From the NCBI RefSeq assembly GCF_044324785.1, contig NZ_CP172127.1: a DNA stretch of 64,000 bases; one strand, 5' to 3'. The notes below the pieces were generated by a model that was not told where the DNA came from, did not search any database, and saw nothing but the letters and a program-made list of their open reading frames with translations. Positions within the stretch are counted from its first letter, which is position 1. Each line of letters begins with the position of its first letter. This document shows positions 7,787 through 31,902 of this stretch, piece by piece. A program made the position numbers and the translations under genes. Source of the DNA: Escherichia coli. GTDB taxonomy: Bacteria > Pseudomonadota > Gammaproteobacteria > Enterobacterales > Enterobacteriaceae.

Positions 7787-7902
7787 TAAGTATTTATCTG
7801 ATTCTGCAACTGAATCCGCCCAGACAGGCTAACCCTGTCATTATCAACTATGCTTTTCTCTTAATTCGCTGAAAACAACAGTAAAAGAATGAGGAAAGCA
7901 TC

Positions 7903-8820: not shown

Positions 8821-8826
8821 TTTCCC

Positions 8827-10903: not shown

Positions 10904-10907
10904 GCGT

Positions 10908-11639: not shown

Positions 11640-11727
11640 AGGTATAACCTGCGAGCATGACGCCACCAATTCCGCCTAACGCCATAAACAGGAACAGGGC
11701 GATGACCCCAATTTTAGCTATGCGCAT
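11620..11727 (-). CDS. yohO: Small hydrophobic membrane peptide (35 aa)
   Basis: Hand-translated: [35 protein letters not shown]; ATG at 11727 preceded by AAGGAGTG; below ORF-track size cutoff; 3' end overlaps yehW 3' end by 20 nt (convergent). Confidence 0.6.
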
Positions 11728-11786
11728 AATGCACTCCTTATGTTAACGAAAGGATTGTACAGTAAAGCGCATTTGTTAACGAATCA

Positions 11787-12518
11787 TTAAATGCCGAGTG
11801 GGAAAATATCATGGCCTTGTTCCTGCCAACTGGTAAGTTGCTGCTGTTGGGCAGAGGTTCGATTTTCACCGCACCACACCAGCAATGTACGGCCTTCGAA
11901 CAGTTCAGGGCGTAGTTGATTGAGCGAGTGGGCGAGGACATCAATGCGCCATCCTTGTTGACTGGCAATCCAGCCCTCCAGCCACAGACGGGTGGTATCC
12001 TGAATATTCCAGCCAACTACCAGCGCATCTTTACCCTGTTTTTTACGCGCCGAAGCCAGACAAATGGCGATGTAGTTGATCAGTACGCCGTCGAGGATCG
12101 CCAGCAGCGCCTGGAGAGTCGGTTGTTGGCACTGAAGTCGTCGGCGCAGAGGAATAAACAGATGTGTGGTGAGCGTCTGGGCGGGGTAATCCTGACCGCG
12201 CTCTTTGATCCACGTTCGCAGGCTATGCAGATTGCCGCTTTGCAGGTAAGTCAGTAATGTTTCTTGCTGATCGCGCCAGCCGTTCTGCACATCAACATTT
12301 TCATTACTGAGCAGCATTTTAACTTTGCTAACCTGCACGCCGTTGTCGATCCAGCGTTTGATCTCGCGGATCCGGTCAATATCGGCATCATTGAACAGCC
12401 GATGACCGCCGTCTGTCCGTTGCGGTTTCAGCAATCCGTAACGCCTCTGCCACGCGCGTAACGTGACAGGGTTAATATCACAAAGCAACGCCACTTCACC
12501 AATTGTGTAAAGCGCCAT
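11787..12518 (-). CDS. mlrA: MerR-family transcriptional regulator (curli/csgD activator)
   Basis: 243 aa; N-terminal MerR HTH (YTIGEVALLCDINPVTLRAWQRRYGLLKPQRTDGGHRLF). Confidence 0.85.
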   Translation of the reverse strand: MALYTIGEVALLCDINPVTLRAWQRRYGLLKPQRTDGGHRLFNDADIDRIREIKRWIDNGVQVSKVKMLLSNENVDVQNGWRDQQETLLTYLQSGNLHSLRTWIKERGQDYPAQTLTTHLFIPLRRRLQCQQPTLQALLAILDGVLINYIAICLASARKKQGKDALVVGWNIQDTTRLWLEGWIASQQGWRIDVLAHSLNQLRPELFEGRTLLVWCGENRTSAQQQQLTSWQEQGHDIFPLGI

Positions 12519-16284: not shown

Positions 16285-18285
16285 TCATCCTTGTTGCTGA
16301 AGCATGGGGAATAATTGTTCGCAAAGTAAAACACCGTTATTCATTGCTTCTACCCGTGCCTCGCTTTCTGTATTACGAAATTGTGCCAACACATGTGCCA
16401 GCCGATAAAAACCCACCGCGGAGAGGTCATTCGCCAGCAACTCTGCCTGACCAATAGCACTCTGTTCCTGATAGCGCCAGCCGTTATGGAGCAGTTGAAT
16501 AAGTAACGCCTGGCAGCGCATCAGCAACTGATGAGCGGTAGACGGCACAGGCAAAACGCTGGCAGAAGGTAGCGGTGCCACAGGCGCAGTTTCTGCGTCC
16601 AGCGCCCAGGCGCGAGTTTTTGTCATCATCACCCGTGGTTCCAGTGTCAATTGCCCCTCTACAAAGCTGACAAAGCCAGAAACCAGACTCACGGGGTCGT
16701 CTGTTTGTTGCAAAAGCGCCGCCATGCGTTCAACGGCAAAAGGAGAACAGGCAGATGCCGGAAGGGATAACGTCAGCACATTATCTTCCCCTTCGCCGCT
16801 AATGACCTGCGCATCCAGTGTCTGGCGGCTGCTATCCCAACCAAGCGAAATACACTCCGCTACCGGCAGAATAAATAAGTTATCGACCTGGTTGAGTGGT
16901 CGTATGCAGGCGGGGGGACGCTGGCGTAAATATTCCCGCAAAGCCACAATGCCCGGCTGGCGCAACGGCGCACTCAACATTTGCCAGGCGTCTGGCGACA
17001 GTGGAACAACACTACTCAAGCGGTTGCGGGTAGCTAACAGCAGCTCGCCATCGGCACTGCGTTTTGCTGCTTGTGAAACAATTTGCCCACCCGCCAGTGC
17101 GCCAGCCTGAAAACTAAACAGCCGACGCGTCGCTGCCGGTGAGTTTTCCTGTTCGCTTCTCGGCCAACTACGCGAAAGGTGCAAAATACTGCCGGTGTCG
17201 GGATCGGTAAACCAGATGCGTAAACCATACTGCTCAATATCCTGCCAGCAACGCATACCTAAAGACACCAGCCGCAGATGATCAAGCTTTGCTTCTCCGG
17301 CAATGCCAGCGCCAACGACCGTGCGCCACGGCATGGGAGGAACTTCACCAACACTGTCGCGCCGGGCCATCTCTTGTGCACAATTTAATCGATTGTTTAA
17401 TGCCGCAAGCTGACATAAGCATTCTCCGGCATGATAGTGGCTGGCGCGGGCGTGGAAGGCATCAACGCTGGCGCGCAGTTGCCGTAGCGATTCACTCACC
17501 CAGCGCCAGTTGCAGCGTTCCGCCGCTTGCTGCGCGCGGCTGAAAGCAGCCTCGTAATGAATAAGCGGCTGGCTGATGCCGCCAAGCCATAACGCCTGGC
17601 TTAATTGCTGAACATATTGACGACACGCGTCGCCCTCATCGTTGGCAAACGGATCGTCAGATGATGTGACGTGTTCGCTGCGCATCTGCCAGATTAAATG
17701 AGTAAATTCCGCTTGCTGCGCTTTGGCCTGGGCAAAGGCCTGTACTGCCAGTACGACATGTTCGCAAAGTGTGCCGTCAATACAATCACAGCGTGCGAAA
17801 CGAATGCTGCTGCGGGAATAAAAACGTACATCGCTCATCGGTAAGCGGGCAGAGGGAATTTCGCCAGGCGTACAGAACAACTCAATGGTGATGCCTTTAG
17901 CGACCAGTGTCTGTGCGCGTTTGCGGGTGGCATCGGGCAGGGTAGCCAGTTCTTCCAGCCAGATTGCCGGATCCCACTCTTCTTCTTTTTCCGTAGGCTG
18001 GGTGGTGGCGCAAAGTCGCTGATAACTTAAAACCAGCATCACGCGATGGCGGCACATGCCGCTGGCCCCGCAGCTGCATTGAGCCTCTTTCAGTGCCTGA
18101 CCGTTCGCCAGCTGGGTGCGGACACCGTCACTGAAGGTGGCGATTAAAGCGCCGTTCTCATGGCTGATTTCCGGGACGTTGCCATTTTCCAGTTCTTTAA
18201 GGCTGCGCTTAACAAAACCGGCATTGCTTAACGCCGTCAAAGCTTGTGGTGTCAGTTCTAATAATTCCGGCCGTAGTGAATTCAT
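16285..18285 (-). CDS. yehQ: SWIM zinc-finger domain protein, function unknown
   Basis: 666-aa ORF; two CxCx(n)CxH motifs (CSCGASGMCRH, CDCIDGTLCEH); ATG overlaps yehP stop (ATGA); precise start not certain. Confidence 0.75.
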   Translation of the reverse strand: MNSLRPELLELTPQALTALSNAGFVKRSLKELENGNVPEISHENGALIATFSDGVRTQLANGQALKEAQCSCGASGMCRHRVMLVLSYQRLCATTQPTEKEEEWDPAIWLEELATLPDATRKRAQTLVAKGITIELFCTPGEIPSARLPMSDVRFYSRSSIRFARCDCIDGTLCEHVVLAVQAFAQAKAQQAEFTHLIWQMRSEHVTSSDDPFANDEGDACRQYVQQLSQALWLGGISQPLIHYEAAFSRAQQAAERCNWRWVSESLRQLRASVDAFHARASHYHAGECLCQLAALNNRLNCAQEMARRDSVGEVPPMPWRTVVGAGIAGEAKLDHLRLVSLGMRCWQDIEQYGLRIWFTDPDTGSILHLSRSWPRSEQENSPAATRRLFSFQAGALAGGQIVSQAAKRSADGELLLATRNRLSSVVPLSPDAWQMLSAPLRQPGIVALREYLRQRPPACIRPLNQVDNLFILPVAECISLGWDSSRQTLDAQVISGEGEDNVLTLSLPASACSPFAVERMAALLQQTDDPVSLVSGFVSFVEGQLTLEPRVMMTKTRAWALDAETAPVAPLPSASVLPVPSTAHQLLMRCQALLIQLLHNGWRYQEQSAIGQAELLANDLSAVGFYRLAHVLAQFRNTESEARVEAMNNGVLLCEQLFPMLQQQG

Positions 18286-19418
18286 GACTGAAGATTCTCC
18301 GCAAGCCAGGTCGCCAGTTCGCCCGGCGTCATGGCGGCTATTTGTGCGCCGACATTAACCAGCGCCTGGGCCGTATCGTGGTCATAGCAAGGTGTTGCGG
18401 TGCTATCGAGCGCCGCCAGTCCCAGCACTTTGACGCCGCTCTGGACACACGTTTTCACCTGATGCGTCAGCAATGATGATGAACCCCCTTCATAGAAATC
18501 GCTCACGAGGATAATGACGCTTTTCGCTGGTTGTTCAATAAGTTGCCGACCATACTCCACGGCACTGGCGATATTGGTCCCGCCGCCCAGTTGTACTTTC
18601 ATTAATAACTCTACTGGATCAGCAACGTCTGCCGTGAGATCAACGACGCTGGTGTCAAACGCCACCAGATGGGTACGAATGCCGGGTAACTGCCATAAAC
18701 AGGCCGCCATCACCGCAGAGTGGATCACCGAATCGACCATCGATCCGCTTTGATCAACCAGTAAGACCAGTTGCCATTGTTCGCTTTGGCGTTTAATGCG
18801 GCTGTTAAAGCGGGGGGATTCGATATACAACTTGCCGTGTTGCGGGTGCCAGTGTTGCAGGTTGGCGCGCAGAGTACTTTTGAAATCAAAGTTTCGCGCC
18901 AGTGGAATAAATGAGCGGCGACGGCGATCGCGGACACCAGAAAAAGCCTGGCGAACTTCCTTTGCCAGTCGCGCCATAATTTCTTCAACAACCTGGCGCA
19001 CTATCCGGCGGGCGGCAGCCAGCACTTCGGGATTCATCAGATGTTTGGTGTGCAAAACGGCGCGTAGCAGGCTTTCAGAAGGCTGCATACGTTCCAGCAC
19101 GTCGAGATTCGTCACCACATCTTCAATGCCGTAGCGCAGTACGGCATCGCTTTCCAGCCGCTCGATCACCTGTTGCGGAAACAGCGTGTGAATACTGTTG
19201 ATCCACTCAGGGGTGGTGAGATTTGAGTCACCTAATCCACCGGAGCGTTCACCACGCTGGAGCCGTTCAGGATCGCGCCCATACAGCCACTCCAGCGCGT
19301 GGTCTATCTGCCGGGCATTGTCATCCAGCCCACAAAGGGTCGTTTCTGCCGCTTCGCCAAGAATTAATCGCCAGCGTTGTAGCTCACGGGTGGTCAGAAG
19401 ATCGTTCAGTTCAGACAT
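18282..19418 (-). CDS. yehP: von Willebrand factor A (VWA) domain protein with MIDAS motif, function unknown
   Basis: 378 aa from MSELNDLLTTRELQRW...; MIDAS-like DQSGS in LLVDQSGSMVDSV; start overlaps yehM stop; track ORF extends upstream into yehM. Confidence 0.8.
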   Translation of the reverse strand: MSELNDLLTTRELQRWRLILGEAAETTLCGLDDNARQIDHALEWLYGRDPERLQRGERSGGLGDSNLTTPEWINSIHTLFPQQVIERLESDAVLRYGIEDVVTNLDVLERMQPSESLLRAVLHTKHLMNPEVLAAARRIVRQVVEEIMARLAKEVRQAFSGVRDRRRRSFIPLARNFDFKSTLRANLQHWHPQHGKLYIESPRFNSRIKRQSEQWQLVLLVDQSGSMVDSVIHSAVMAACLWQLPGIRTHLVAFDTSVVDLTADVADPVELLMKVQLGGGTNIASAVEYGRQLIEQPAKSVIILVSDFYEGGSSSLLTHQVKTCVQSGVKVLGLAALDSTATPCYDHDTAQALVNVGAQIAAMTPGELATWLAENLQS

Positions 19419-21690
19419 GGAAAACTCCCCAGTGTTGCAGCGATGCCAGTGCCTGCTGTTCGAGTTGTTGATGATGTGCAATGGCTTGCGGTGGACAATG
19501 CAACGGCATTTGCAGCGCTGAAACGGGAAGCTGTGCGAGCTGGTAATGCTCAAGCACCTGATGCGCCAGCGTCCCGCGTTCCCGTGGTGGTAGCCAGGCC
19601 ATCGCCGCACGTAAATCGGGCAGGGCGTTAATAAAATCGTCGTCACTCAGTTGATTTAAATGACTACTGAAACCGGCGATAAATGCCGGCTGACAGGCCA
19701 GTTGATGGCGGGCCAGCGCCAGCAAACCGTGCAGTGCCTCGCCGGATTGTGCCGGGGATAATTGCGCCAGCATCGTCAGCGCCGCTTCGGCACTGGCGTT
19801 GGGATGTTCCAGACGCATCAGTGCGCCAAGAGCCGCGCCGCGATCCAGCGCCGGGGCATGAATCGCCTGACTGCGGCGCTCCAGTAAGGCTACCGCCGCA
19901 GAAAGAGAAACGCCGGGTAAATTAACGCCGCTATGTAGATCGCGCAGGATATGGCAAAGCGCCTGCCAGCTATGCAGGTGAGCGTGAAACTCCTTTTCCT
20001 CCGGTCTGCCGTTGGATTCACACAGCCAGAGTGTGCGATCGATAGCCGCGCATAACGTCGTCTGTAATATCTGCGCGCCTTGCATACCGCTAATTTCATC
20101 CAGCCGCCATAAGGCGTATAGCACTTCCAGCGCCTGGCCCATTTCGGCAAACTGATTTTCCTGGGCGATTAATAATGTAAGTTGCTCCAGTAATTGTTGA
20201 CTGAAGGACGCCAGACCCGCTAACGCCGCCTGGCTAAGACATGTGGTGATACTGCCGATTCCACCCGCGTCCAGCATATCGGCTTCTAATTTATTGCGTG
20301 CGGCTTCCTGGAGTGTGGCACCAAAGCAGGCGGCCTCAATTAATGCCGCATGTTGGCTAAGCGGGCGGGTTAATTTCCAGCGTTCTTCACCGTTGCCTGC
20401 AAGTGTCAGTGTGCTTCCCTGCTGGCGTACAATCCCTGGGATCTCCAGTATTGCCAGCCGATGTAACACCTGACTTTGCGCTAGTCTATTGGGGTTAAAG
20501 CGATTTAAGGTAAGCTCCGCCGGAAGAGAGATTGCGGTACGTTCCAGTTCGCAGGTGACATCTTTTGGCAGAGGCGGTTGTGGCGTAGAAGGGGCAAGTT
20601 TACCGAATCCGTCACCCGCTAATGTGTCTATCAACGTTAGCAGAATCGGATCGGTATCGGGATGAATAACGCCGCGATAGCTCCACGGCAACGGCGCGTT
20701 CAAGGCTTCTTTAATCAGCGAGCCTGCTATGGCATCCAGCCAGTCAGTGCGTAACGGTAGTATATGACCGCGCAACTGTGCCAGCGCCATCGCATGCAGA
20801 TGAGCGGCAGCCATATCCGCTGTTGAAGCAGGCAAGTGGTGCTGGCGCAAACGGGTAAGAACCGTTTTCAGCAGTTGTTCACCTGCCTGCTGCAAGCCCC
20901 ACCGCCAGCACCAGTTTTGCCAGACCGGGGCAGGCATTCCTGAAAGGTATCCTGCCAGCACATCAAGGCGCTTTTCACTGTATGGCGTGAGATAGCAACC
21001 TGTAACGGCATCATCCAGTGAGAGCAATTCTGGCGTGTTAATTTCTTGCGGGCATTCGCGCCACATTTTTGCCAGTGCCGGAGCGTGCCAGCCTCCGCAG
21101 ACGACTAATACGTCGCCATTATTTTGCTGCATCGCCCATCCAATCCAGCGGGCCATAAAGGCTTCGCGCTGACGATTGAGTGCATCGCCGGAGGCGTCGC
21201 CCCGCAGTTGTACAAAATAGTGCGCCAGTGCAGAGGGTAATATAGTTTGCTGGCTTTCATCTTCGAACAAGTGATCCCACAGGGTGTCGCTGTTATCCAT
21301 GCGGGTGGCACGCAGCAGCAAGGTCTGGCTTTCCTCTTGCGTATCAGGCGAATTGTCCTCTTCTTCACTCTGTGCCCAGCAAGGCAAATCGATGAAGTAA
21401 GTTTGTGCCTGAATACGACGTGCGGCTTGTAGCGCCTGCCACTCCGGCGAAAATTCAGCAAATGGCGTCCAGGCACCACGCCCGGGGGCCGCACCGTCCT
21501 GATACTGGCAATAACTGTAAATAGCTACCGGAAGCTGGTGGGCTAACAACAGTTCGTCTACCCGGTCATTAAAATCAGCCGGGCCTTCAATCAACACGTA
21601 TCGTGGCCGCTGGCTTTCGATTAACGATTTCACCAGCCGGGCGCAGGCCGGACTATGATGCCGGATGCCGACAATTAACGGCTCGCTCAT
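19411..21690 (-). CDS. yehM: Large protein of unknown function (759 aa)
   Basis: ATG at 21690 preceded by GAGGAAAG, 10 nt after yehL stop; Leu/Ala/Gln-rich, no motif I can assign. Confidence 0.75.
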   Translation of the reverse strand: MSEPLIVGIRHHSPACARLVKSLIESQRPRYVLIEGPADFNDRVDELLLAHQLPVAIYSYCQYQDGAAPGRGAWTPFAEFSPEWQALQAARRIQAQTYFIDLPCWAQSEEEDNSPDTQEESQTLLLRATRMDNSDTLWDHLFEDESQQTILPSALAHYFVQLRGDASGDALNRQREAFMARWIGWAMQQNNGDVLVVCGGWHAPALAKMWRECPQEINTPELLSLDDAVTGCYLTPYSEKRLDVLAGYLSGMPAPVWQNWCWRWGLQQAGEQLLKTVLTRLRQHHLPASTADMAAAHLHAMALAQLRGHILPLRTDWLDAIAGSLIKEALNAPLPWSYRGVIHPDTDPILLTLIDTLAGDGFGKLAPSTPQPPLPKDVTCELERTAISLPAELTLNRFNPNRLAQSQVLHRLAILEIPGIVRQQGSTLTLAGNGEERWKLTRPLSQHAALIEAACFGATLQEAARNKLEADMLDAGGIGSITTCLSQAALAGLASFSQQLLEQLTLLIAQENQFAEMGQALEVLYALWRLDEISGMQGAQILQTTLCAAIDRTLWLCESNGRPEEKEFHAHLHSWQALCHILRDLHSGVNLPGVSLSAAVALLERRSQAIHAPALDRGAALGALMRLEHPNASAEAALTMLAQLSPAQSGEALHGLLALARHQLACQPAFIAGFSSHLNQLSDDDFINALPDLRAAMAWLPPRERGTLAHQVLEHYQLAQLPVSALQMPLHCPPQAIAHHQQLEQQALASLQHWGVFHV

Positions 21691-21700
21691 GCATCTTTCC

Positions 21701-22789
21701 TCACGGCAGGCGGTGGCGAGCTTGATAATAAGCCTGCCAGTGAGCTTCTTTATGTGTAGCGACACGTTGTTCGAAGTAACGGCGCAGACGTGCGCGATCT
21801 TCTTCGTTATCTTTGACGATGGTTCCGGCAATACAGTCCACCAGGTCGGCTGGCTCCCCCGCGCGATTCGCTAAAAACCAGGCGCGGACGCCCACAGCGT
21901 GGGCCACGTTCACGGCTTCAGCGGTGGACATAATCGCTGTCAGTGTATCCATTGACGTTTTCTTTTCGCCGTTGGCACGCAGATCGCGGAAGGTGCGTAC
22001 CAGTAACTCCAGTACCGCGTCAGGCACTTTATGCGGAATACCGCTATGGGCCAACAAACGCGCCGAAGCACTGGCGACCAGTTCCAGCTCCTGGGCGAAA
22101 TCCATAATCGGAAAGACAGTTTCAAAATCGAAGCGACGCTTTAGCGCAGCACTCATTTCATTGACGCCGCGATCGCGGGTATTGGCAGTGGCAATAATAT
22201 TAAAGCCTTCCCGCGCATAGAGCTGACTGGCTTCACCAGTGAGTTCCGGCACCGTCATTACCCTGTCAGAAAGCATACCTAACAGACAGTCTTGTACTTC
22301 CAGCGGTGTACGCGTTATCTCTTCAAAACGGACAATTTTGCCGTCGCGCATTCCCTGGTAAAGCGGGGCAGGGACCAGCGCTTCCGTTGACGGACCATGG
22401 TTGATAAGCAGGGCGTAGTTCCAGCCATACTTGATTTGATCTTCGGTGGTAGATGCGCCGCCCTGGATGGTTAACCCGGCATCGCCGCTAATAGCGGTTG
22501 CCAGTAATTCAGACAGGAGAGATTTTGCGGTGCCAGGTTCCCCCACCAACATCAAACCGCGCCCGGTAGCGAGAGTGACTAACATGCGTTCGACAGCGGA
22601 GGGACTGATCACGACTTTACGGCTAATATTTTGCGCTTCGTCGCCAAGGATAAAAGCACGGGCCGCAGGCAAACTTAACTGCCAACCTGGCGGGCAAGGT
22701 GCGTTATCATTTTGTTTTAATTTTGCCAGTTCATCGGCGTATAACACAGCGGCAGGCGGACGCTGCAGATGTTTATTCTGCGGTGACAT
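21701..22789 (-). CDS. yehL: AAA+ ATPase (MoxR/CbbQ-like, AAA_5-type), function unknown
   Basis: 362 aa from MSPQNKHLQRP...; Walker A GEPGTAKS; Walker-B-like hhhFEEITR. Confidence 0.8.
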   Translation of the reverse strand: MSPQNKHLQRPPAAVLYADELAKLKQNDNAPCPPGWQLSLPAARAFILGDEAQNISRKVVISPSAVERMLVTLATGRGLMLVGEPGTAKSLLSELLATAISGDAGLTIQGGASTTEDQIKYGWNYALLINHGPSTEALVPAPLYQGMRDGKIVRFEEITRTPLEVQDCLLGMLSDRVMTVPELTGEASQLYAREGFNIIATANTRDRGVNEMSAALKRRFDFETVFPIMDFAQELELVASASARLLAHSGIPHKVPDAVLELLVRTFRDLRANGEKKTSMDTLTAIMSTAEAVNVAHAVGVRAWFLANRAGEPADLVDCIAGTIVKDNEEDRARLRRYFEQRVATHKEAHWQAYYQARHRLP

Positions 22790-22900
22790 ATATTCATCCC
22801 TGAAATGTATTAATGAAATAAACGATATTTTACGCGCAATAAATGTTTGGCGCATTAGTTGTTTGAGCGAAAAATATCTGGAAAGCAGATCACAGTAAAT

Positions 22901-22981
22901 AAAAAAACCTGCTGGTGAGGCAGGTTCTTTTATTTACTACAGTGACGCTAACTTGCTGATTGTGCAACATTTCGTACCAAC
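22901..22981 (-). ncRNA. orzO: OrzO-like antitoxin sRNA, copy 1 (~81 nt, boundaries inferred)
   Basis: Minus-strand TATAAT (22993-22988) 17 bp from palindromic TTGCAA (23011-23016); intrinsic terminator on minus strand (stem cctgc/gcagg 22908-22924 followed by U7 at 22907-22901); 5' 18 nt (22964-22981) complementary to zor 5'UTR 23132-23149 with one G-U. Confidence 0.5.
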
Positions 22982-23010
22982 GAATAAATTATAACCATAT
23001 CCACACTCCA

Positions 23011-23038
23011 TTGCAATTCAGTGAATGAGATTTATAAT
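23011..23038 (+). promoter_or_regulatory. Sigma70-type promoter of toxin mRNA, copy 1 (TTGCAA-16-TATAAT); the palindromic -35 is shared with the divergent sRNA promoter
   Basis: TTGCAA 23011-23016, TATAAT 23033-23038; predicted TSS ~23045 giving ~175-nt 5'UTR. Confidence 0.55.
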
Positions 23039-23219
23039 CCTGCCCGTTGGGAGGTTGTGCCGGATCGGACCAATTTTAAGTCCTGGCTACCGGACGGGTG
23101 GTGCCGCAGGCGGTGCCCTGATCCGGAGAGCAACGTTTCGTACCAACATACGTAAACCAGTATCGACAGGCAGTGTAAGGGTAAGGTGCTGGTGTTGCGC
23201 TCCTTAATAAGGAGAGCGG

Positions 23220-23309
23220 ATGGACACGCTGACACAAAAGTTAACCGTGCTCATTGCTATACTGGAGCTATTAGTGGCTCTGTTACGGTTGATTGATTTG
23301 TTGAAGTAA
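23220..23309 (+). CDS. zorO: ZorO-like type I toxin, 29-aa hydrophobic peptide (copy 1)
   Basis: MDTLTQKLTVLIAILELLVALLRLIDLLK; AAGGAGA SD 7 nt upstream; TisB-like amphipathic helix; below ORF-track cutoff; which copy is zorO vs zorP not resolved. Confidence 0.7.
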   Translation: MDTLTQKLTVLIAILELLVALLRLIDLLK

Positions 23310-23330
23310 CGGGCAAATTGAAACGCATCT

Positions 23331-23354
23331 AAGGGGGAAAACCGCTTCCCCCTT
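23331..23354 (+). terminator. Hairpin terminator after toxin ORF copy 1
   Basis: aagggggaa-aaccgc-ttccccctt perfect 9-bp stem. Confidence 0.5.
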
Positions 23355-23508
23355 TAATAAAATGATTACTGTTTTTATTAATTCATCATATAACTCATTT
23401 TTATTTATAAATTCATCGATTTTATATTCAACGTACCATTTGACCGGGATGTGAATATTTATGGTGGGCTATTGGCAAAAAATATCTGGAAAGTAGATCG
23501 CAGAAAAT

Positions 23509-23589
23509 AAAAAAACCTGCTGGTGAGGCAGGTTCTTTTATTTACTACTTTGATGTTAAGTTACTGATAGTGCAACATGGCATCTCAAC
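23509..23589 (-). ncRNA. OrzP/OrzO-like antitoxin sRNA, copy 2 (boundaries inferred)
   Basis: Same architecture shifted by 608 bp; 5' pairing region differs from copy 1 at several positions and matches its own cis toxin UTR better. Confidence 0.45.
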
Positions 23590-23618
23590 GAACGAATTAT
23601 AACCACCTCTGGACAGTG

Positions 23619-23646
23619 TTGCAATTAAGATAATGAGATTTATAAT
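23619..23646 (+). promoter_or_regulatory. Sigma70-type promoter of toxin mRNA, copy 2 (TTGCAA-16-TATAAT)
   Basis: TTGCAA 23619-23624, TATAAT 23641-23646. Confidence 0.5.
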
Positions 23647-23827
23647 CCTGACTGTTGGGAAGTTGCGCCGGATCGAACCCATTTCAAGTCCTGGCTACCG
23701 GACGGGTGGTGCCGCAGGTAGTGCTCTGATCCGGAGTGCAACATGGCGACTCAACAAACGTAAACCAGTGTCGACAGGCAGTGTAAGGGTAAGGTGCTGG
23801 TGTTGCGCTCCTTAATAAGGAGAGCGG

Positions 23828-23917
23828 ATGGACACGCTGACACAAAAGTTAACCGTGCTCATTGCTGTACTGGAGCTATTAGTGGCTCTGTTACGGTTGA
23901 TTGATTTGTTGAAGTAA
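23828..23917 (+). CDS. ZorO/ZorP-like type I toxin, 29-aa peptide (copy 2)
   Basis: MDTLTQKLTVLIAVLELLVALLRLIDLLK (I14V relative to copy 1); same SD. Confidence 0.7.
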   Translation: MDTLTQKLTVLIAVLELLVALLRLIDLLK

Positions 23918-23936
23918 CGGGCAAATTGAAACGCAT

Positions 23937-24344
23937 CTAAGGGGGAATACCGTTTCCCCCTTTAATAAAGCTATACTCGTCATACTTCAAGTTGCATGTG
24001 CTGCGACTTGAATTATCTAGAGTATATAATTCTATTTGTTGGTTGAATATATTCTGTAGTTCACAATTAAAAATTACTATTACAGGTTCAGGTGATTCGC
24101 CTCGTAATTTTTGCTCATCAATAAACTCATCTCTTATATAAATCAACGCATCATTTATTAGCGGGTCGACATCTTCTCGATCACGTTGATGAAATGTTGG
24201 ACGTAGCCGGAATCGCTCCAGCCGGTAGACGGAGCCTGTAAATAATTCAGAGCGTTTATGGATCTCAAGCCTGAAGGAAAACGGCTCTTCAGGTACAGGG
24301 GCCTCATAGTCGTAAATAGTGACCAGCTCTTTTTGCACGATCAT
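23937..24344 (-). CDS. yehK: Small protein of unknown function
   Basis: 135-aa ORF (MIVQKELVTIYDYEAPVPEEPFSF...) 60 nt downstream of yehI; C-terminal codons lie in the terminator hairpin. Confidence 0.6.
   Translation of the reverse strand: MIVQKELVTIYDYEAPVPEEPFSFRLEIHKRSELFTGSVYRLERFRLRPTFHQRDREDVDPLINDALIYIRDEFIDEQKLRGESPEPVIVIFNCELQNIFNQQIELYTLDNSSRSTCNLKYDEYSFIKGGNGIPP
23939..23962. terminator. Hairpin after toxin copy 2, abutting the yehK stop codon (convergent)
   Basis: aagggggaa-taccgt-ttccccctt; yehK stop at 23937-23939 on the opposite strand. Confidence 0.5.
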
Positions 24345-24404
24345 CGCTTTTCCCGGTGGCAGGTCGTGTTAATAACGGGCAGTCGCATCACTGCCCGCTG
24401 TGTT

Positions 24405-27400
24405 TTAATGGAAAATAACGTCGGGTGCGCTTAACGCTTCACTCAAATCAAACACATCAAGTTCGGCAAAAGTGACAGATTTATTCTCGCGGTATACATG
24501 AAGAGAACGGAAGCTCATTAGCGCTTTGCTATCAACATTGTAGTGGTTAAAACCGGATGAAAACTTAAGGACCAGCCGGTACTCGCCCAGGTCATAGACA
24601 AATGCGTTCTCATAGCCTGACTCCCAGCCTTTGTATCGCATTCCCATAAGTTGCCCAACGGTAGCAGATTTACCTTCCCAGCGATTCAAACTATTACTGG
24701 CTGACTCGTCAGGCGTGAGCAGCACTGTGCGCCGTGCCAATTGGCGAAAAGGCGGCATAATTTCGTAATCGGCAAAAAGCTGTGCAAACTCACTGCGCAT
24801 TTCTGCTGCCATTTCTAACGGGTGGGCAATGCCAATCAGAGCATCGGCAGGCAGGTCAATGGGCTCATCTTGCTCATTGCAGAACTCCCCCTCAGCGGCC
24901 ACACGAAAGGCGTTGAGTAAACGACGCGGTTCATTTGCCGGATAAACACCCCATATTAATCGCTGAGTAACCAGACGGGTAAAGGGATGATTAACAAACA
25001 GAGAATGAAAATCTGCCAGCGACCAGCGTCGGGTGGTGCGCAGGGCAGTTTCAAGACGCGGGAGCAGGTTTTTGCTCACCTGAGTGGCATCTTTTTTTAG
25101 CCCTTTTAGTCGGGCCAGTGCCTCGGGTGCTTTCAGTTGATCGTCATCGGCGCGCAACCGGGGAACGCTTTTCTGGCGAACGTTTTGCTGATCAAAGATA
25201 ACCGGGTTAAGGTTTTCATCGAAGCGAACGGTAAATTGCCGTGGACCAAAATCAAAAATCAACGCCTGCGGATCATCAAGACCCAGTGTTGGGACTAATC
25301 TGTCCGCTAACTGTTCCTGGCTTAGCCCGCGATTTTCTGCGACCACCTGAAGAAATTCCGCCGCGTTATCACGTAAGGGGCGGGATTTCGCCCGTTGCGA
25401 TATATGATGCAGCTGTATCAGTGCCATATCATTATTCATCTGAGTAAGGATGTTCAGGCCGCTGACGGCACGGGCAGATTTGCCTTCCTGTGGCCAGGCA
25501 AGGATCTGTGTCGTCAGATCCCGTGCCGTGCTTTCGTCGCCAAAGAGACTTAACGCCAGAAATGCCCAGTTGTCTTTTGCGGGAGCACCAGCTTGTTGCC
25601 ACGCGGTGAAAAGATCCCAGGCAAAAGCTGCCAGCGTTTGCGGCTGGCAGAAAGTTTTCAGTTGTTCCAGTCCGCTATAAAAACGTCCGCCCTGGGTAAA
25701 GCACAGCATTTCGCCGATAATTTCCAGAGCGTCATCGGTAACAGGCTGATTATTAGTGATAAGGCGCGGCCTGGACCACATTGCCGGCTGCCAGAAATCA
25801 GGGGCTTTTGGAATGCGTGTCGGGTAAATCTCTATTGGACTCTGTTTAAGTAATTGCTCCAGGGCAGGCCATACATCTTTACGCTGCCAGCGGTTTGCCA
25901 CGGTTTGCAGTAACTCGCCATGTCCCTGTTCGTAAAGTAAACGCAGGGCAAGTAATGCAGCTTCGCTATTATCGCTGGATTTGGTGAAGACAAGAGGGAT
26001 AAGTGCAGTAGCCGTATGTTCCGGCCAATGTAAAATCCACTGGCGAGCCAGATCACGCTGCGCCGCGAAACGTCGCCAGACGCGGGCAACGGGCAGTGCC
26101 AGTTCGGTTGCGCCGAAATTTAAAATTAACGGAAATGTTTCTTTTGGACGATGTGAAAAAGCCAACAGCAGACCTGGTAGAGCATCCAATCCGAAGATAC
26201 TGAGAAAATAGTCCTCACCCGCAGACAGATGCTTTTTCTCATTGATACGTAGCCAGAAAGTCAAAGCCATCTCACGCGGCAACTGCGCCAATAAATACTG
26301 GTTCCAGATACTCTTTTCCCGACGATAGCGTGAGTAGCTGTCATTTTCCCATATGTTAATTAACACTTCTACGTGACCGCTGCGAAGCGCCTGTTCTGCT
26401 AATTGAGCTTCCGGGGAGCTCCAGCCATTCATGATCTCTTCAACCCGCCCTGGGTAGTAATGCCACTGAACAATGAGTGAATTGCGTGCAGCATCCAGTT
26501 TTCCGGGGAGTATATAATTCAAAAACAGCCATACATCATCTCCAAAACCCAGCTCCTGTAGTACAACTCGTCCACTTTTATGTTCCATGCGTTCCGCAAG
26601 AGATTCCGTGCTGAAATAACGGGCAGACTCAGTGGCGGCAAGCCTCTCTCGTTCGCCCGGTTGCCAGTAAACTTGCGGCGTTAATTCGAACGGTGCCAAA
26701 TCAAGACGTGGAACTGTCATTTTTTTCTTACTACGCCACGGTGGTGAAACGAGGATTTCAGGCATTTGGCTGTTATCGGTGCTATCAATAACCGTTTTGG
26801 GCGGTGCCGATAAATAACTATTCAGCACTGCCTGGGCTTGAGTACTTAACCACGGCATCACCTCTTCTGCCAGTTGTGGCTGCGATGCCATCAGCGTTTG
26901 TAACAGCGTACGCCAGAATTCATCACGTGCTTTTTGCTGTGCAGGCAGCTTTTTGTCTTCGATGATTGGATAACCTGGGCGGGCTGGTGGTTCTTTTAAC
27001 GCCAGCAGTTCTGCCAGTGCGGTGAGTGTCGCATGGGGGAAGTTTTTACTGTATTTAGCCACACGTTGCAGGCTGGGTTTGTTTTTATCAGCAACTAACA
27101 GCAAGGTGCGGATGACTTGCGGATGGTTAATTTGTACCAGCAGACTGCCGCAATCTTCTTTATGAGCATACATTGCCAGGCGCGGAACGGCTGCCAGTCC
27201 TTGTTCGCGCAAAAGGGAGGCGCAGGCCGCGTAGCCGAAGCGGTTTTCTTGTGACATGTAGCTGGCTTCGCGATCGCTAAATACGTCCAGGCCCCAGTAT
27301 CGTTCGAGTTTTTTTACCGCTCTGGGGTCATTAGCAACAACTTTTAACCACTCCTTAGAATGAAAATGAGTCCGCGGGCATTCAAGGCCTACCAACTCAT

Positions 27401-28037
27401 TGGCGATTTCTGGTTTTTCCGGGAGGAGCAGCGCAATAAAAGGGCGGCGAACTTTGGTTATTCCTGGCAGTGCGGCAATGAGTTTGTCGGCGCAACGCTG
27501 CCAGCTGCTTTCCTCTGCCAGAGAGAGATGCTTACGCAGTCGGAGATCGAATTCGTTATAGGTTTCTGAGCGATAACCATAGCCATAATCCTCGTTCTGA
27601 TACTGCAATGTCACTAGCAGAGGATCACTCTCATAACACCGTGCAATAAACTGGCGTGCAATCACCACCTCAGTCGCATATTCCAGTCCCTCTTGTTGGA
27701 CGATTTCGTCGAGCAACTGTTGGCTATCATTTTGCGCGATACAGGTTAGCGCCGCCATTGTCCGGGCCGGAACTGAGGGTTTGTGTTCTCCGATCAAGTT
27801 GATGGCCTGCGTAATGGCCGACTGCCACTCCAGTGAAAAATTTTCATAACGCCAGACAATGTTTTTTTTCTTCTCAGCTTTTTGTAGCAATTCATCACCC
27901 AGTGTCTGGATGAGGCTTTCAGTGATAACAGGCACCGGTTCGCCCGGCCAACTGCGATGGCTGAGCGGCGTTTTGCCTTTTTTATATTTCAGTTCCACTT
28001 GGGCGTTATCCGCCAGCCACGGTAATTCCTTGTCCAT
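24405..28037 (-). CDS. yehI: Large DUF4132-type protein of unknown function (1210 aa), paralog of molR
   Basis: Long blocks alignable with molR product (e.g. RLRKHLSLAEESSWQRCADKLIAALPG... and FTAWQQAGAPAKDNWAFLAL...DFGPRQFTVRFDE); start 9 nt after molR stop. Confidence 0.8.
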   Translation of the reverse strand: MDKELPWLADNAQVELKYKKGKTPLSHRSWPGEPVPVITESLIQTLGDELLQKAEKKKNIVWRYENFSLEWQSAITQAINLIGEHKPSVPARTMAALTCIAQNDSQQLLDEIVQQEGLEYATEVVIARQFIARCYESDPLLVTLQYQNEDYGYGYRSETYNEFDLRLRKHLSLAEESSWQRCADKLIAALPGITKVRRPFIALLLPEKPEIANELVGLECPRTHFHSKEWLKVVANDPRAVKKLERYWGLDVFSDREASYMSQENRFGYAACASLLREQGLAAVPRLAMYAHKEDCGSLLVQINHPQVIRTLLLVADKNKPSLQRVAKYSKNFPHATLTALAELLALKEPPARPGYPIIEDKKLPAQQKARDEFWRTLLQTLMASQPQLAEEVMPWLSTQAQAVLNSYLSAPPKTVIDSTDNSQMPEILVSPPWRSKKKMTVPRLDLAPFELTPQVYWQPGERERLAATESARYFSTESLAERMEHKSGRVVLQELGFGDDVWLFLNYILPGKLDAARNSLIVQWHYYPGRVEEIMNGWSSPEAQLAEQALRSGHVEVLINIWENDSYSRYRREKSIWNQYLLAQLPREMALTFWLRINEKKHLSAGEDYFLSIFGLDALPGLLLAFSHRPKETFPLILNFGATELALPVARVWRRFAAQRDLARQWILHWPEHTATALIPLVFTKSSDNSEAALLALRLLYEQGHGELLQTVANRWQRKDVWPALEQLLKQSPIEIYPTRIPKAPDFWQPAMWSRPRLITNNQPVTDDALEIIGEMLCFTQGGRFYSGLEQLKTFCQPQTLAAFAWDLFTAWQQAGAPAKDNWAFLALSLFGDESTARDLTTQILAWPQEGKSARAVSGLNILTQMNNDMALIQLHHISQRAKSRPLRDNAAEFLQVVAENRGLSQEQLADRLVPTLGLDDPQALIFDFGPRQFTVRFDENLNPVIFDQQNVRQKSVPRLRADDDQLKAPEALARLKGLKKDATQVSKNLLPRLETALRTTRRWSLADFHSLFVNHPFTRLVTQRLIWGVYPANEPRRLLNAFRVAAEGEFCNEQDEPIDLPADALIGIAHPLEMAAEMRSEFAQLFADYEIMPPFRQLARRTVLLTPDESASNSLNRWEGKSATVGQLMGMRYKGWESGYENAFVYDLGEYRLVLKFSSGFNHYNVDSKALMSFRSLHVYRENKSVTFAELDVFDLSEALSAPDVIFH

Positions 28038-28046
28038 GCTCTTTCC

Positions 28047-31000
28047 TTATTCAAACAGGGCTTCAATATCGTTAATTAGCTCGCTGGCGGTGATGGCATC
28101 GAGTACGGAGAACTGCGCTTCCTGTGTTGAATTACTCCCCCAGCCATAGCTTTCTGCTTTGCCTTCCCATAGCCACAGCTTGCTTAAGAGTTGCTCGGCA
28201 CTGAGTTCGGCTGGCGACATGCCGACCGCAAAACCTTCATCGATTTCCATGATTAACGACCAGCGGCCCAGAGGTTTGATCATCCAGCCGATCCAGCCTC
28301 CATCCTGCGGGGTGCCCTTTATCCAGCCTTTATTCGCCAGCCCCATGACCCGACCGCTCGGGCATTTTCTGCCTGCCCAGTGGGTCAGTTCGCTGGCGTT
28401 GCGCTCGGCTTCTGTCAGGGCGTAACTGTTACGGTCAAGCTGACGGAACGGTGGTAGCAGTTCATAGTCGGCAAAAAGCTGACCAAAGGCGGCAGCATCC
28501 GTTGGTGATATTTCCAGAACGTGAGGAATGCCGATAGAGATATCGCCTTCCGGCAGGGTGAAAAGATCATCGTCAGCGGTGCTGTAGCTGTTATCTTCCG
28601 CCACGCGAAAGCAAGCCAGTAGCTCGTTTTCGGTGCTATAAACGCCCCAAATCAGACGGCGGGTTAAGTGACGAACCAGCGGATGCTCAACCAGGAAGAG
28701 CTGGAAGTTTTCCGGCGACCAGCGGCGGCGCAGGCACATGGCGGATTCCAGCCTTGCTACCTGCTGGGCGGCGATGGTACGCGCATCTTTTTTCAGCAAT
28801 TTGTAGCGGTTAACAGCATCGTTCGCCTGTGATTCATCATCGCTTTTGTTTGGTTTGGGTAAATCTTTCAGGCGGCTGCCGGAAGCGTCACGCACAAACG
28901 GTTTTAAGGTTTCATCAAAGCTGACGGTGAACTGGCGTGGGCCGAAATCCAGCAGCAACGAACCGTTATCATCCAGACCGAGATTCGGTGCTAACCGATC
29001 TTCAAGCTCCGCCACCGTGAGCTCGCGGCTTTCGGCAATGTCGGCAATTTTCTCTTTCGCCCGCTCCTGTAATGCTTTGAATTTCAGTTTCTGGGCGATG
29101 CCGTTAAGCTGCATCAGGGCGATATCACTACCGATAGCAGCGAGAATATCCAACCCAACGGTGGCGCGTTTATGCTGAGATTCGCCAGGCCAGGCGCGGA
29201 TTAATGGCGTCAGTTTGCGGGCGGTGTCATCGTTGCCGAGAACACCTAACGCAATGAACGCCCAGCTTTCTTTCGATGGCGCGCCCGCAGTCAGCCAGGC
29301 GGTAAACAGATCCCAGGCAAATTCAGCCAGAGAGTCAGAGGTACAGGCATCTTTCACCTGCAATAATCCCGGATACAGAGCCTCTTCCAGAGGGAAGCGG
29401 AGCATTTCACCGAGGTGGAGGAGGGCGTTATCTGGCAGTGATTGGGCGTTTGCTTTTAATACCGGGCGCGTCCAGAGCGATGGCTGATAAAAGGCCGGAA
29501 GAGTGGGGATTTTTGTCGGGTGATTATCTAAGGCATCGAGCGCAAGCAGAGCGTTCACCGCATCTGTTACTTCCGGCTGGTTATAACGCCGGGCGATTTC
29601 TTGCAGTAATAGCTGATGACCGTTTTCGGTAAGCATACGCAAGGCAGCGCGGGCGTTATCCTGTGCTTCACCGGCTTTGCCGAGCGCCGAAGGTAGCAGG
29701 CCGGTAATGGCGTGTTCCGGGTATTTCAGCAGCCAGGTGCGGGCGTCTTGTCGTAGGGTTTTGAGTTTGTTGAAGGCGCGGGCGATCAGTGGCGCTAATT
29801 CGATAGCCGCAAAATATTGTGCTACAGGCAGAGCTTCTTGTGGATAGCGTGAAAAGGAGTGAATAAAACCCTGTAACCCAGCGAGTTGCAGGTGTGTCAT
29901 GACAAACTCGACACCGACGTGTGGCTCTTTACTAAGGACATTCCACGCCTGCGCTGTTTTTTCGATAGGCAGGGCGGCTAACATGTAAAGCTGCCATTCC
30001 CGTTGATAGGAGTGCCAGAAGGTTTTAAATTCGCTGATCAGCGCAGAATAATCTCCCCTCTGCCAGAGTTCTACAACAGCATCAGACGCTTTCATAGAGT
30101 GGCCATTATTCCAGCGATTGAAACCCAGACGTGTCAGGTAGTTCTGAATATCCTCTTTTTGGCCGATGTCTATTTGATGTGCGTGCCAGCGATGCCTTGC
30201 ATGAATCTCTTTTTCTGCCGTCTCGGTCAATGTGCAGCATGACTCCAGCGGTAATGGCGTTAAATCCAATACCGGCATTACAGATTTTTTCTTTTTCGAA
30301 AGCCAGGGCGGTGAGACTAATACGGCAGGCAGCATATCGGCGCTGGCATGGTTTGAGGGCTGTGTCAGTTGTTGCTGGCATGATTTCAGTACGGCAACTG
30401 CGGGTGTTGAGAGCCAGGGAGTGACCTGTTCTGCTAGTGCCGGTTGCGAGATAAGCATCGTCATCAGCATAATGCGCCAACTATTCTCTTCTTTTTGCGC
30501 AAGAAGTTCCGCCAGTGCAGCCAGTGCTGCGTGTGGGAACGCAGCGCAAGCCTTAGTCATTCGTTCATGGCAGCGTTTAGTTTTGCCAGACACACGTATA
30601 AGTAGCATTAATGCTTGTGGGTGATTGATCTCTTCGAGAATACTTCCACAAAGATCAGCATAAGCATAGGGGGCGAAGCGAGCGATTCCGGCAATCCCTT
30701 GCTCCTGCAAAACGGTGACATTCCAGATGCAACCATGGTAATAGTCATTAAAAAGGTCGTACGCGCAATAAGATTCCAGTGCTTTGAGCAAGGAAGATTC
30801 TTGAACAACAAGTTTCAGCCATTCAACAGTTTGGACATTTTTCTGCTTCAGTAACTGTCGTGCGACTTCTTCTGCAATCTCCGGGCGTTCCGGTAGCATT
30901 AGCGCTACCATCGGTTGTTGAACGGGAGGAATATCAGGCAAAGCTGTAATGAATTTATCTACACAGCGTTGCCACAAAGTTTCTTCTGCTAGAGCCAAAT

Positions 31001-31796
31001 GCTTACGCAGTCGAACGTCAAAGGGGGTAACACAATGTGCGTGGTTTAATAATGGCTGAAAAGTAATGTGTATGCTTGTTCTGTGATAAGTGCAATCGAA
31101 CGAGATATATTGCATGGCAATAAACATATCCACGGCAAATTCTAGTCCGTAGACATAGACAATTTCATCCATGAGTTCAGGGCATTCGCCCCAGAATTTA
31201 CGCGAAACCAGACCAACCTGTACAGCCAACGCAGCAGGAGAAAGTGGACCATTAGCGAGAGCTTCATTGATATTCTGCTGCCAGTTAGCAGAACATGCAC
31301 TGAAATCGTATGTTGTTAATTTTCCTGATAGATTATGAATATCCTGACCTAAATTCATAAGGAGGCTGTCTTGTGGTTCGCTTACAGCATCCCCAGGAAA
31401 ACGTCGGGAAGGTAAGGCCTCCTGAGACTTTTTCTCCGATAGATGGATAGTGGAATCATCTGTAAGCCACGGGCATGGTGTCTCAGCAGGTTCAGCAACC
31501 ATACTTTGGTCAAATACGACAGTGGTTTCTGCCACGCCAGTTGTATCTACTTCGATCGTTTCTATTTTGATTGCGGGTTGGGATGGCGAAGATAATTCTT
31601 CCACATATCCCTTCTTCACCTTCTCCGCAATCAGCTTCAGTTCCGCTTTTTCCGCAGCCGCAGTATCAGCAAAGCTTTTTACCTGACTTTGCCCTTTGGT
31701 GCCAACTTTTCCCCAACTGATATGCAACTCGTTTCCCTGTTGCTCAACCGCCCAGAATTTATGTGATTTTTCGCCCTGAAAGATAAAGTGTCTCAT
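28047..31796 (-). CDS. molR: Large WGR-domain + DUF4132-type protein (1249 aa), intact
   Basis: N-terminal WGR-like motif (FQGEKSHKFWAVEQQGNELHISWGKVGTKGQ); C-terminal paralogy with yehI; continuous ORF. Confidence 0.8.
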   Translation of the reverse strand: MRHFIFQGEKSHKFWAVEQQGNELHISWGKVGTKGQSQVKSFADTAAAEKAELKLIAEKVKKGYVEELSSPSQPAIKIETIEVDTTGVAETTVVFDQSMVAEPAETPCPWLTDDSTIHLSEKKSQEALPSRRFPGDAVSEPQDSLLMNLGQDIHNLSGKLTTYDFSACSANWQQNINEALANGPLSPAALAVQVGLVSRKFWGECPELMDEIVYVYGLEFAVDMFIAMQYISFDCTYHRTSIHITFQPLLNHAHCVTPFDVRLRKHLALAEETLWQRCVDKFITALPDIPPVQQPMVALMLPERPEIAEEVARQLLKQKNVQTVEWLKLVVQESSLLKALESYCAYDLFNDYYHGCIWNVTVLQEQGIAGIARFAPYAYADLCGSILEEINHPQALMLLIRVSGKTKRCHERMTKACAAFPHAALAALAELLAQKEENSWRIMLMTMLISQPALAEQVTPWLSTPAVAVLKSCQQQLTQPSNHASADMLPAVLVSPPWLSKKKKSVMPVLDLTPLPLESCCTLTETAEKEIHARHRWHAHQIDIGQKEDIQNYLTRLGFNRWNNGHSMKASDAVVELWQRGDYSALISEFKTFWHSYQREWQLYMLAALPIEKTAQAWNVLSKEPHVGVEFVMTHLQLAGLQGFIHSFSRYPQEALPVAQYFAAIELAPLIARAFNKLKTLRQDARTWLLKYPEHAITGLLPSALGKAGEAQDNARAALRMLTENGHQLLLQEIARRYNQPEVTDAVNALLALDALDNHPTKIPTLPAFYQPSLWTRPVLKANAQSLPDNALLHLGEMLRFPLEEALYPGLLQVKDACTSDSLAEFAWDLFTAWLTAGAPSKESWAFIALGVLGNDDTARKLTPLIRAWPGESQHKRATVGLDILAAIGSDIALMQLNGIAQKLKFKALQERAKEKIADIAESRELTVAELEDRLAPNLGLDDNGSLLLDFGPRQFTVSFDETLKPFVRDASGSRLKDLPKPNKSDDESQANDAVNRYKLLKKDARTIAAQQVARLESAMCLRRRWSPENFQLFLVEHPLVRHLTRRLIWGVYSTENELLACFRVAEDNSYSTADDDLFTLPEGDISIGIPHVLEISPTDAAAFGQLFADYELLPPFRQLDRNSYALTEAERNASELTHWAGRKCPSGRVMGLANKGWIKGTPQDGGWIGWMIKPLGRWSLIMEIDEGFAVGMSPAELSAEQLLSKLWLWEGKAESYGWGSNSTQEAQFSVLDAITASELINDIEALFE

Positions 31797-31902
31797 TCTG
31801 CATCCCTGTAATTTTATCCAGTTGAATGCTGATGCTACCAGTATTTATGCGGGTTAGAGAGAGACAAAATCGCAAGAAAACAACTTTAGGAATTTATAAA
31901 GA

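Follow-up and report, generated by a model that had tools for sequence, protein, structure and literature searches.

In the characterised MoxR/VWA pairs (RavA-ViaA, CbbQ-CbbO, NorQ-NorD and CoxD-CoxE), an AAA_5 ATPase with Walker A and B motifs is encoded near a gene for a VWA protein with a MIDAS motif, and the YehL proteins form a subfamily of their own, one of the seven recognised among the MoxR ATPases (PMC3893208). We analysed the yehL locus of an Escherichia coli strain in a stretch of 64,000 nucleotides (hereafter, the window; contig NZ_CP172127.1 of assembly GCF_044324785.1), in which seven intact minus-strand open reading frames (ORFs), molR, yehI, yehK, yehL, yehM, yehP and yehQ, fill positions 16285-31796. 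An initial annotation had proposed that the WGR/DUF4132 proteins and the AAA+/VWA/SWIM module encoded here were either parts of one system or two unrelated systems. Our results indicate that molR/yehI and yehLMPQ very probably constitute one five-component system. Compared with the MoxR/VWA pairs, this cassette has no adjacent client enzyme and, it adds three obligatory partners that other MoxR systems are not known to have: a DUF5682 protein with a predicted TIKI-like domain, a double-SWIM protein and WGR-solenoid-DUF4132 proteins. The features of the locus are the following:

31806-31821, minus strand: LexA-box-like site CTGGATAAAATTACAG, 10 nt upstream of the molR ATG
28047-31796, minus strand: molR, encoding WGR, a HEAT-like alpha-solenoid and DUF4132
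24405-28037, minus strand: yehI, a molR paralogue without WGR
23937-24344, minus strand: yehK, a small AT-rich ORF restricted to Escherichia
22790-23936, no strand assigned: spacer with a duplicated zorO/orzO type I toxin-antitoxin element (from Rfam and ORFs)
21701-22789, minus strand: yehL, a MoxR-family AAA+ ATPase (AAA_5; YehL subfamily)
19411-21690, minus strand: yehM, DUF5682, with a predicted TIKI/TraB/ChaN/erythromycin-esterase-like N-terminus followed by HEAT-like helical repeats
18282-19418, minus strand: yehP, a VWA protein with an intact MIDAS
16285-18285, minus strand: yehQ, with two N-terminal SWIM zinc fingers

The seven-gene block is real, as ORFs and RefSeq annotation agree on it, and the matching E. 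coli loci in RefSeq carry identical gene names and order between metG and yehR/yehS (molR being annotated there as an unnamed DUF4132 protein); GCA_037485505.1 carries an identical locus. The yehM and yehP genes overlap, as do yehP and yehQ. The domain content noted in the initial annotation was borne out by Pfam, in precomputed as well as fresh scans, with WGR and DUF4132 in MolR, DUF4132 in YehI, AAA_5 in YehL, DUF5682 in YehM, VWA_CoxE/VWA_2 (PF05762/PF13519) in YehP and two SWIM fingers in YehQ; these scans gave no Pfam domain for YehK. The seven genes do share one strand, as was pointed out, but this run constitutes no evidence in itself because metG and yehR share the minus orientation and the run therefore extends beyond the block.

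The evidence for a single system comes from the comparison with other genomes. YehM homologues were aligned, one genome per species (GTDB) was scanned and, from 333 confirmed loci, the best 80 were taken with 10-kb flanks; every ORF in these 80 loci was submitted to an iterated profile search with the seven window proteins as queries. In 76 of them the flanks were sufficient to judge the presence of a MolR-family neighbour, and in 74 of these 76 a MolR/YehI-family gene adjoins the yehLMPQ homologues. It lies directly upstream of yehL on the same strand in 67 loci (median gap of 73 nt, minimum of -7), directly downstream of yehQ on the same strand in five loci, all from Burkholderia, and upstream in divergent orientation in two loci from Myxococcota. 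The two loci without a MolR-family gene also lack yehP and yehQ. The family calls were re-checked independently with Pfam, which recovered DUF4132 in 47/47 sequences and WGR in 35/47, and the homology covers the full length of MolR, beyond the DUF4132 domain alone. A WGR-bearing copy is kept in at least 62 of the 74 loci, and most of the remaining loci are cut by the end of the contig or of the locus.

The cassette is present in Enterobacterales, Xanthomonadales, Burkholderiales, Neisseriales, Myxococcota, Actinomycetota (Glycomyces, Lentzea, Streptomyces and one Propionibacteriaceae genome assembled from a metagenome) and alphaproteobacterial plasmids, so that its range takes in Gamma-, Beta- and Alphaproteobacteria as well as Myxococcota and Actinomycetota, at least four groups at phylum level. 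Some lineages have a permuted gene order, with all five genes kept. In Sinorhizobium the order is AAA-DUF5682-DUF4132-VWA-SWIM; a metagenome contig displays the order AAA-WGR/DUF4132-DUF5682-VWA-YehQ-like, and in one locus two DUF4132 genes sit between DUF5682 and VWA. In most genera other than Escherichia the cassette genes abut or overlap, with 4-nt overlaps in Streptomyces and one other contig. The one-system interpretation is therefore strongly supported, because the adjacency of the MolR family holds in 74/76 loci and survives the permutation of the gene order. A sixth conserved gene family was sought around the cassette in 77 loci and none was found; the recurrent neighbours are ABC ATPase, SDR, MFS and rpoH genes, each in at most 11 loci. 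The rpoH gene (sigma-32) is located just downstream of the cassette in nine loci (L031, L034, L040, L047, L055, L058, L066, L052 and L062), from Xanthomonadales and Comamonadaceae, where shared synteny or the transfer of a larger block is possible. Two loci of Betaproteobacteria bacterium MS502 (L059 and L065, ~7900-12400) are degenerate, containing only yehL and yehM homologues and no yehP, yehQ or DUF4132 gene; a 289-aa ORF between the two homologues weakly resembles DNA-damage-inducible protein D (E=4e-6).

A search in the opposite direction, with the C-terminal half of MolR as the query, retrieved 5947 cluster representatives at E<=1e-3, and eight of the best 150 were looked up. Four of these MolR-like representatives are in the cassette, two are cut at the contig end after an abutting same-strand gene and two are solitary within 9 kb, so that the cassette context was found for four of the six informative ones. 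Thus, the independent phyletic distributions that the initial annotation had named as a sign of two systems are not seen from the cassette side, where the link is near-obligate; from the DUF4132 side, in this best-150 sample, the link is frequent and non-exclusive. The two proteins without a cassette (L086, 9001-16155; L093, 9001-12768) comprise a 1673-aa protein encoded between a ParA/MipZ-like ATPase and a DinG-like helicase, and the product of a solitary WGR+DUF4132 gene on a Sandaracinaceae contig.

In relation to these loci, the E. coli arrangement is derived: a duplication of molR gave rise to yehI, and the locus acquired yehK and the toxin-antitoxin pair as insertions. Most genomes carry one MolR-type gene, while Escherichia and Klebsiella carry two (MolR and the WGR-less YehI, an arrangement also seen in the Klebsiella loci L009 and L010) and other lineages up to four. 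YehI aligns to positions 106-1243 of MolR, the latter representing the ancestral type of partner protein in the cassette. When the distance from MolR to YehL is compared over all loci, the three widest gaps are those of Escherichia, and yehK was found only in this genus (eight matches, all Escherichia). Both yehK and the toxin-antitoxin pair, the latter a known element, thus stand outside the conserved system, and these insertions probably split the transcription of the cassette in Escherichia.

The regulation reported for the two halves differs. H-NS binds upstream of yehL, and yehL and yehM are upregulated in an hns/stpA mutant (PMC3686432), whereas BglJ-RcsB activates the molR promoter, which H-NS does not repress (PMC3950696). 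In another study, molR is described as a member of the LexA regulon, and the Deinococcus WGR gene DR2173 and DUF4132 gene DRA0166 are strongly derepressed as part of the DdrO radiation-response regulon (PMC8533742). SOS control was considered as a general feature of the cassette and rejected, as upstream LexA boxes were observed, out of 49 loci, in three enteric genera only. The region formed by yehK and the spacer (22790-24344) has a G+C content (GC) of 0.40-0.43, which fits the reported intergenic binding of H-NS.

These differences are among the points in favour of the alternative in which molR-yehI-yehK and yehLMPQ are two unrelated systems, merely side by side in E. coli. In the window the two sets are separated by 1.1 kb containing the toxin-antitoxin pair and small RNA (sRNA) terminators, their regulators are distinct (BglJ-RcsB/LexA vs. 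H-NS) and their GC is 0.50 for the molR-yehI-yehK half vs. 0.55 for yehLMPQ (0.54-0.56 for the individual genes). However, the adjacency across phyla described above, which is robust to permutations including a DUF4132 gene located inside the cassette, and the gap of only ~78 nt in Klebsiella argue against this alternative, which we consider very improbable. The co-occurrence of molR/yehI with yehLMPQ homologues, proposed as a check by the initial annotation, thus favours one system over two. The GC at third codon positions in yehLMPQ is no higher than their total GC, suggesting that the latter is driven by amino-acid composition.

Concerning the individual proteins, YehL is, judging from its motifs, a catalytically intact MoxR AAA+ ATPase (PF07728): the Walker A (GxPGTAKS), the Walker B (FEE), N203 and R218/R219 are invariant in 28 sequences. 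Its sequence identity is 61-89% across phyla, with 61-64% between E. coli and Actinomycetota, and among solved proteins its closest relatives by sequence are the midasin AAA domains. In YehP, the MIDAS residues (D222xS224xS226, T249 and D307) are invariant. By analogy with RavA-ViaA, CbbQ-CbbO and midasin, it is likely that YehL and YehP would act together as a MoxR-VWA remodeller. Midasin (Rea1), the eukaryotic ribosome-assembly remodeller, shares with them the AAA_5-type ring and the MIDAS, and it works with large helical scaffolds. Midasin, however, fuses six AAA domains into one chain of 5000 aa, whereas the ATPase and the MIDAS reside here on separate proteins, and no link to ribosomes is evident. 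A 16-nt +1 ribosomal frameshift cassette, GTGGAGTATGGTCGGC, is located in yehP (18545-18560, minus strand) and exactly matches the cassette of K-12 yehP, which has been reported and tested (PMC2790909); this frameshift would yield a 303-aa YehP without the end of the VWA domain.

For YehM, the structural model suggests, with fair confidence, that the N-terminal ~250 residues adopt a hydrolase fold like that of the TIKI/TraB/PrgY/ChaN/erythromycin-esterase superfamily, sharing its alpha/beta fold, with the haem-binding protein ChaN among the top matches of the fold search. A paired GxxH/Glu is the signature of the TIKI/TraB superfamily. In YehM, G8-x-R10-H11, E35, R175-E176 and G199-G200-x-H202 are invariant or nearly so, and we take these GxRH/E/GGxH residues to resemble that signature. 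In contrast to the members of the superfamily, YehM shows no profile match to Pfam TraB or to solved members, and its N-terminus is fused to a C-terminal domain of ~500 residues composed of HEAT-like helical repeats. Indeed, the YehM alignment matched only DUF5682 in Pfam, and sequence-profile searches of the PDB retrieved no relatives for YehM, for its N-terminal domain alone or for YehQ. The enzymatic activity of YehM is therefore a prediction from the modelled fold, as sequence profiles do not link it to the superfamily.

YehQ has SWIM zinc fingers at residues 56-88 and 160-183, followed by a C-terminal region of ~480 aa. MolR comprises a WGR domain (approximately residues 1-100), a HEAT-like alpha-solenoid and DUF4132 (residues 973-1158); no solved homologues were found for the components beyond the WGR domain. 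In NCBIfam, the seven proteins gave weak, partial matches only, among them one between YehP and a cobaltochelatase subunit model and one between YehL and GvpN.

These matches bear on an alternative in which YehL-YehP is a maturation chaperone, inserting a metal or cofactor into an unlinked client enzyme, or remodelling it, with MolR/YehI holding the substrate and the ChaN-like domain of YehM binding the cofactor; the old name of MolR, 'molybdate metabolism regulator', would then reflect this role. In agreement with this, the MoxR-VWA pairs characterised so far all serve in maturation or remodelling (background in PMC3893208), ChaN binds haem, and a protein of ~1250 aa together with an AAA_5 ATPase and a VWA protein recalls the size pattern of CobN/S/T. 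Class I chelatases (CobN-CobS-CobT and BchH-BchI-BchD) have in common with this cassette the three-part pattern of a ~140 kDa protein, a MoxR-like ATPase and a VWA protein. They differ from it in that the MolR model, a HEAT-like solenoid, shows no CobN/BchH-like fold, in that SWIM and TIKI-like parts are added here, and in the lack of a tetrapyrrole pathway context. A chelatase-like large subunit was thus rejected as a candidate for MolR on the basis of the fold search. Furthermore, known MoxR-VWA maturases adjoin their clients, whereas beside the cassette no conserved client gene was seen in 77 loci; a maturation role would leave the presence of WGR and SWIM unexplained; hypervariable alleles and tandem paralogue expansion (see below) are unusual for a maturase; and the 'mol' phenotype was named in a K-12 strain whose molR is a pseudogene. 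Such a role therefore appears rather unlikely, although it is the leading alternative, and the single five-component remodelling system remains our preferred reading.

Within E. coli, the two halves of this system vary to different extents. yehLMPQ is 95-99% identical in nearly all genomes, while yehI-molR is mostly 90-95% identical and ~20% of it cannot be aligned by megablast. The unalignable portion corresponds to MolR residues ~65-640 (window 29880-31600), over which the K-12 allele aligns in a single patch of 86.5% only, and the MolR allele of an Escherichia sp. shows a protein identity of 38-50%, vs. 90-96% over the C-terminal half. Around this hypervariable module, molR keeps a conserved promoter and WGR-coding 5' end. 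The N-terminal solenoid of MolR thus looks like a set of deeply divergent allele classes, as in a cassette-type allelic replacement. All the genes are under purifying selection: the ratio of non-synonymous to synonymous substitution rates (dN/dS) between this strain and another E. coli is 0.03 for yehL, 0.10 for yehP, 0.11 for yehQ, 0.16 for yehI, 0.17 for yehM and 0.22 for molR, and 0-0.03 for the flanking genes. Among the genes around the block, btsS, yehS, yehR and apbC are 98-99.8% identical to those of E. coli genomes. Across phyla, conservation decreases in the order YehL > YehP > YehM > YehQ ≈ MolR.

Inactivation is also observed. In a K-12-type genome (L002; 4286-6286 and 15117-18912), molR is frameshifted and yehQ is truncated by an internal stop. 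The K-12 copy of the system is thus probably non-functional, which would explain missing phenotypes in K-12 screens. Furthermore, yehI is disrupted in some strains, and in a sublineage of ST131 a resistance transposon is inserted in this region (PMC9334617).

A damage- or invader-sensing role is our best guess for the function and can be proposed, tentatively, from several lines of evidence: the location of the hypervariable MolR module between the conserved WGR and the conserved C-terminal half; the one to four tandem MolR paralogues per locus together with the graded conservation of the components; and the LexA-like box in three enteric genera, the reported LexA/DdrO regulon links and the repression of yehL/M by H-NS. 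The idea of a 'sensor plus ATP-driven effector', raised in the initial annotation, is compatible with the domain content.

On balance, and with moderate confidence, we favour the reading of this locus as one conserved five-component remodelling system carrying two Escherichia-specific insertions (yehK and the zorO/orzO pair). Its core would consist of the WGR-solenoid-DUF4132 protein (MolR, duplicated as YehI), YehL, YehM, YehP and YehQ. In the mechanism that we propose, the YehL ring ATPase and the MIDAS domain of YehP would form a remodeller of a 'split midasin' type, acting on a complex for which MolR/YehI, YehM and YehQ provide the scaffold. Docking on the machine may take place through the C-terminal half of MolR, which is conserved and includes DUF4132, while the WGR and the hypervariable N-terminal solenoid would detect a signal, for which nucleic acid that is damaged or foreign, or a variable protein, is the most plausible candidate. 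The remodelling, driven by ATP, would then activate or inactivate the putative YehM hydrolase or a bound client, and YehQ could supply nucleic-acid or protein binding. A more specific version appears unlikely as a whole: a self-contained surveillance machine with no relation to the catalogued defence systems, in which the split-midasin-like motor would remodel the MolR sensor, whose hypervariable module would recognise damaged or foreign nucleic acid or invader proteins, and would switch on the TIKI-like hydrolase in an SOS-linked immune or stress response.

Several observations weigh against this favoured reading or parts of it. The five proteins are linked by gene neighbourhood, and their physical association is a prediction. 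The WGR domain is absent from some MolR-family copies, and some MolR-like proteins have no cassette within 9 kb. Separate transcription of the two halves is likely in E. coli because of the sRNA terminators and the H-NS-bound AT-rich spacer before yehL and of the separate control of molR; the initial annotation had named independent transcription units as a sign of two systems, and such units are probably present in this species, but they are no argument against functional unity. The LexA-box-like site CTGGATAAAATTACAG has one mismatch to CTGT-N8-ACAG, a pattern that taken alone is not above chance in the window, and a box at the same position was found in Klebsiella grimontii (L009) and Intestinirhabdus alba (L017) and in none of the other 46 loci tested. 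None of the seven proteins was found to carry a recognised toxic effector domain, be it a nuclease, TIR, pore or NADase, and no family of PADLOC (PADLOC-DB 2.0) matched any of them at E<=0.01. Finally, phages and typical mobile plasmids are almost devoid of the cassette, plasmid carriage being limited to megaplasmids, and the E. coli locus occupies a fixed, near-core position between housekeeping genes, outside defence islands. Indeed, of 5426 complete E. coli genomes, 5202 cover yehLMPQ to 80% or more, and the 'accessory hotspot' suggested by the initial annotation therefore fails.

The last of these observations (the PADLOC result, the position outside defence islands, the near-core status, the scarcity in phages and small plasmids and the lack of a nuclease, TIR, pore or NADase effector) also argue against an anti-phage or anti-plasmid defence in which the MoxR-VWA pair would activate YehM as an abortive-infection effector. 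The PADLOC null for all seven proteins excludes a defence system that is already catalogued. On the other side, vWA-MoxR 'ternary' conflict systems are said to have been proposed from comparative genomics by Kaur et al. (eLife, 2020), and the hypervariable module, the paralogue expansion, the silencing by H-NS, the patchy distribution combined with the very high YehL identity between phyla, the frequent inactivation (molR and yehQ in K-12, the transposon insertion in ST131) and the neighbouring toxin-antitoxin pair would all be in agreement with such a function. We consider it quite unlikely.

The YehL subfamily of MoxR ATPases and the zor-orz locus are already known. No paper was found on the cassette itself, on DUF5682, on the link between DUF4132/WGR proteins and yehLMPQ or on a TIKI-like fold of YehM, in a search that had subscription journals outside its scope (e.g., the 2006 MoxR classification paper may mention the neighbourhood). 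The TIKI-like fold predicted for YehM is, we believe, new. As a consequence of this analysis, six E. coli genes of obscure role, covering ~14 kb, become a single testable unit, and the least understood MoxR subfamily gains a fifth obligatory partner and a predicted hydrolase. The inactivated molR and yehQ would also account for the uninformative work in K-12. Concrete targets for mutation are the Walker B of YehL, the MIDAS of YehP, H11/E35/H202 of YehM and the WGR of MolR. Should the damage- or invader-sensing role prove true, ~96% of E. coli would possess a response system of a new, AAA+-driven kind; if cofactor maturation were true, a missing assembly factor would have been identified.

Regarding possible relationships with phages, PHROGs families (e.g., phrog_29006, 31592, 30700, 20839 and 36295) match full-length YehQ, YehP, YehM, YehI/MolR and YehK at very high scores. 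A phage origin was considered from these matches and rejected, since they most likely represent E. coli host genes captured via over-extended prophage calls.

The toxin-antitoxin duplication that the initial annotation placed between yehK and yehL is also real, being supported by two Rfam OrzO-P matches and two 29-aa ORFs:

22901-22974 and 23509-23582, minus strand: OrzO/P sRNAs (Rfam RF02083, 88.8 and 91.7 bits, threshold 60)
23220-23309 and 23828-23917, plus strand: ZorO-type toxin ORFs of 29 aa, with the sequence form MDTLTQKLTVLIA(I/V)LELLVALLRLIDLLK

Both orz sRNA terminators are on the yeh strand and point at yehL, and promoter- and terminator-like sites are present in the spacer. A duplicated zorO-orzO/zorP-orzP type I toxin-antitoxin locus has been described for E. 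coli O157:H7 (PMC3919570); it has in common with the spacer two sRNAs and two toxins in tandem, with no notable difference. The pair varies between strains, and K-12 lacks it, the yehK-yehL gap being there 307 nt, whereas in this window the separation reaches 1.1 kb.

Finally, yehK, with a GC of 0.40, is a pseudogene in strain SCU-102 (L001), and its ORF measures 135 aa here vs. 105 aa in K-12. It is longer in this strain because the ORF reads into the repeated toxin-antitoxin hairpin. Each zor-orz unit carries this G-rich hairpin, GGGGGAAxCGGTxTTCCCCC, at its start (23330-23350), and it is the element into which yehK (23937-24344) runs.

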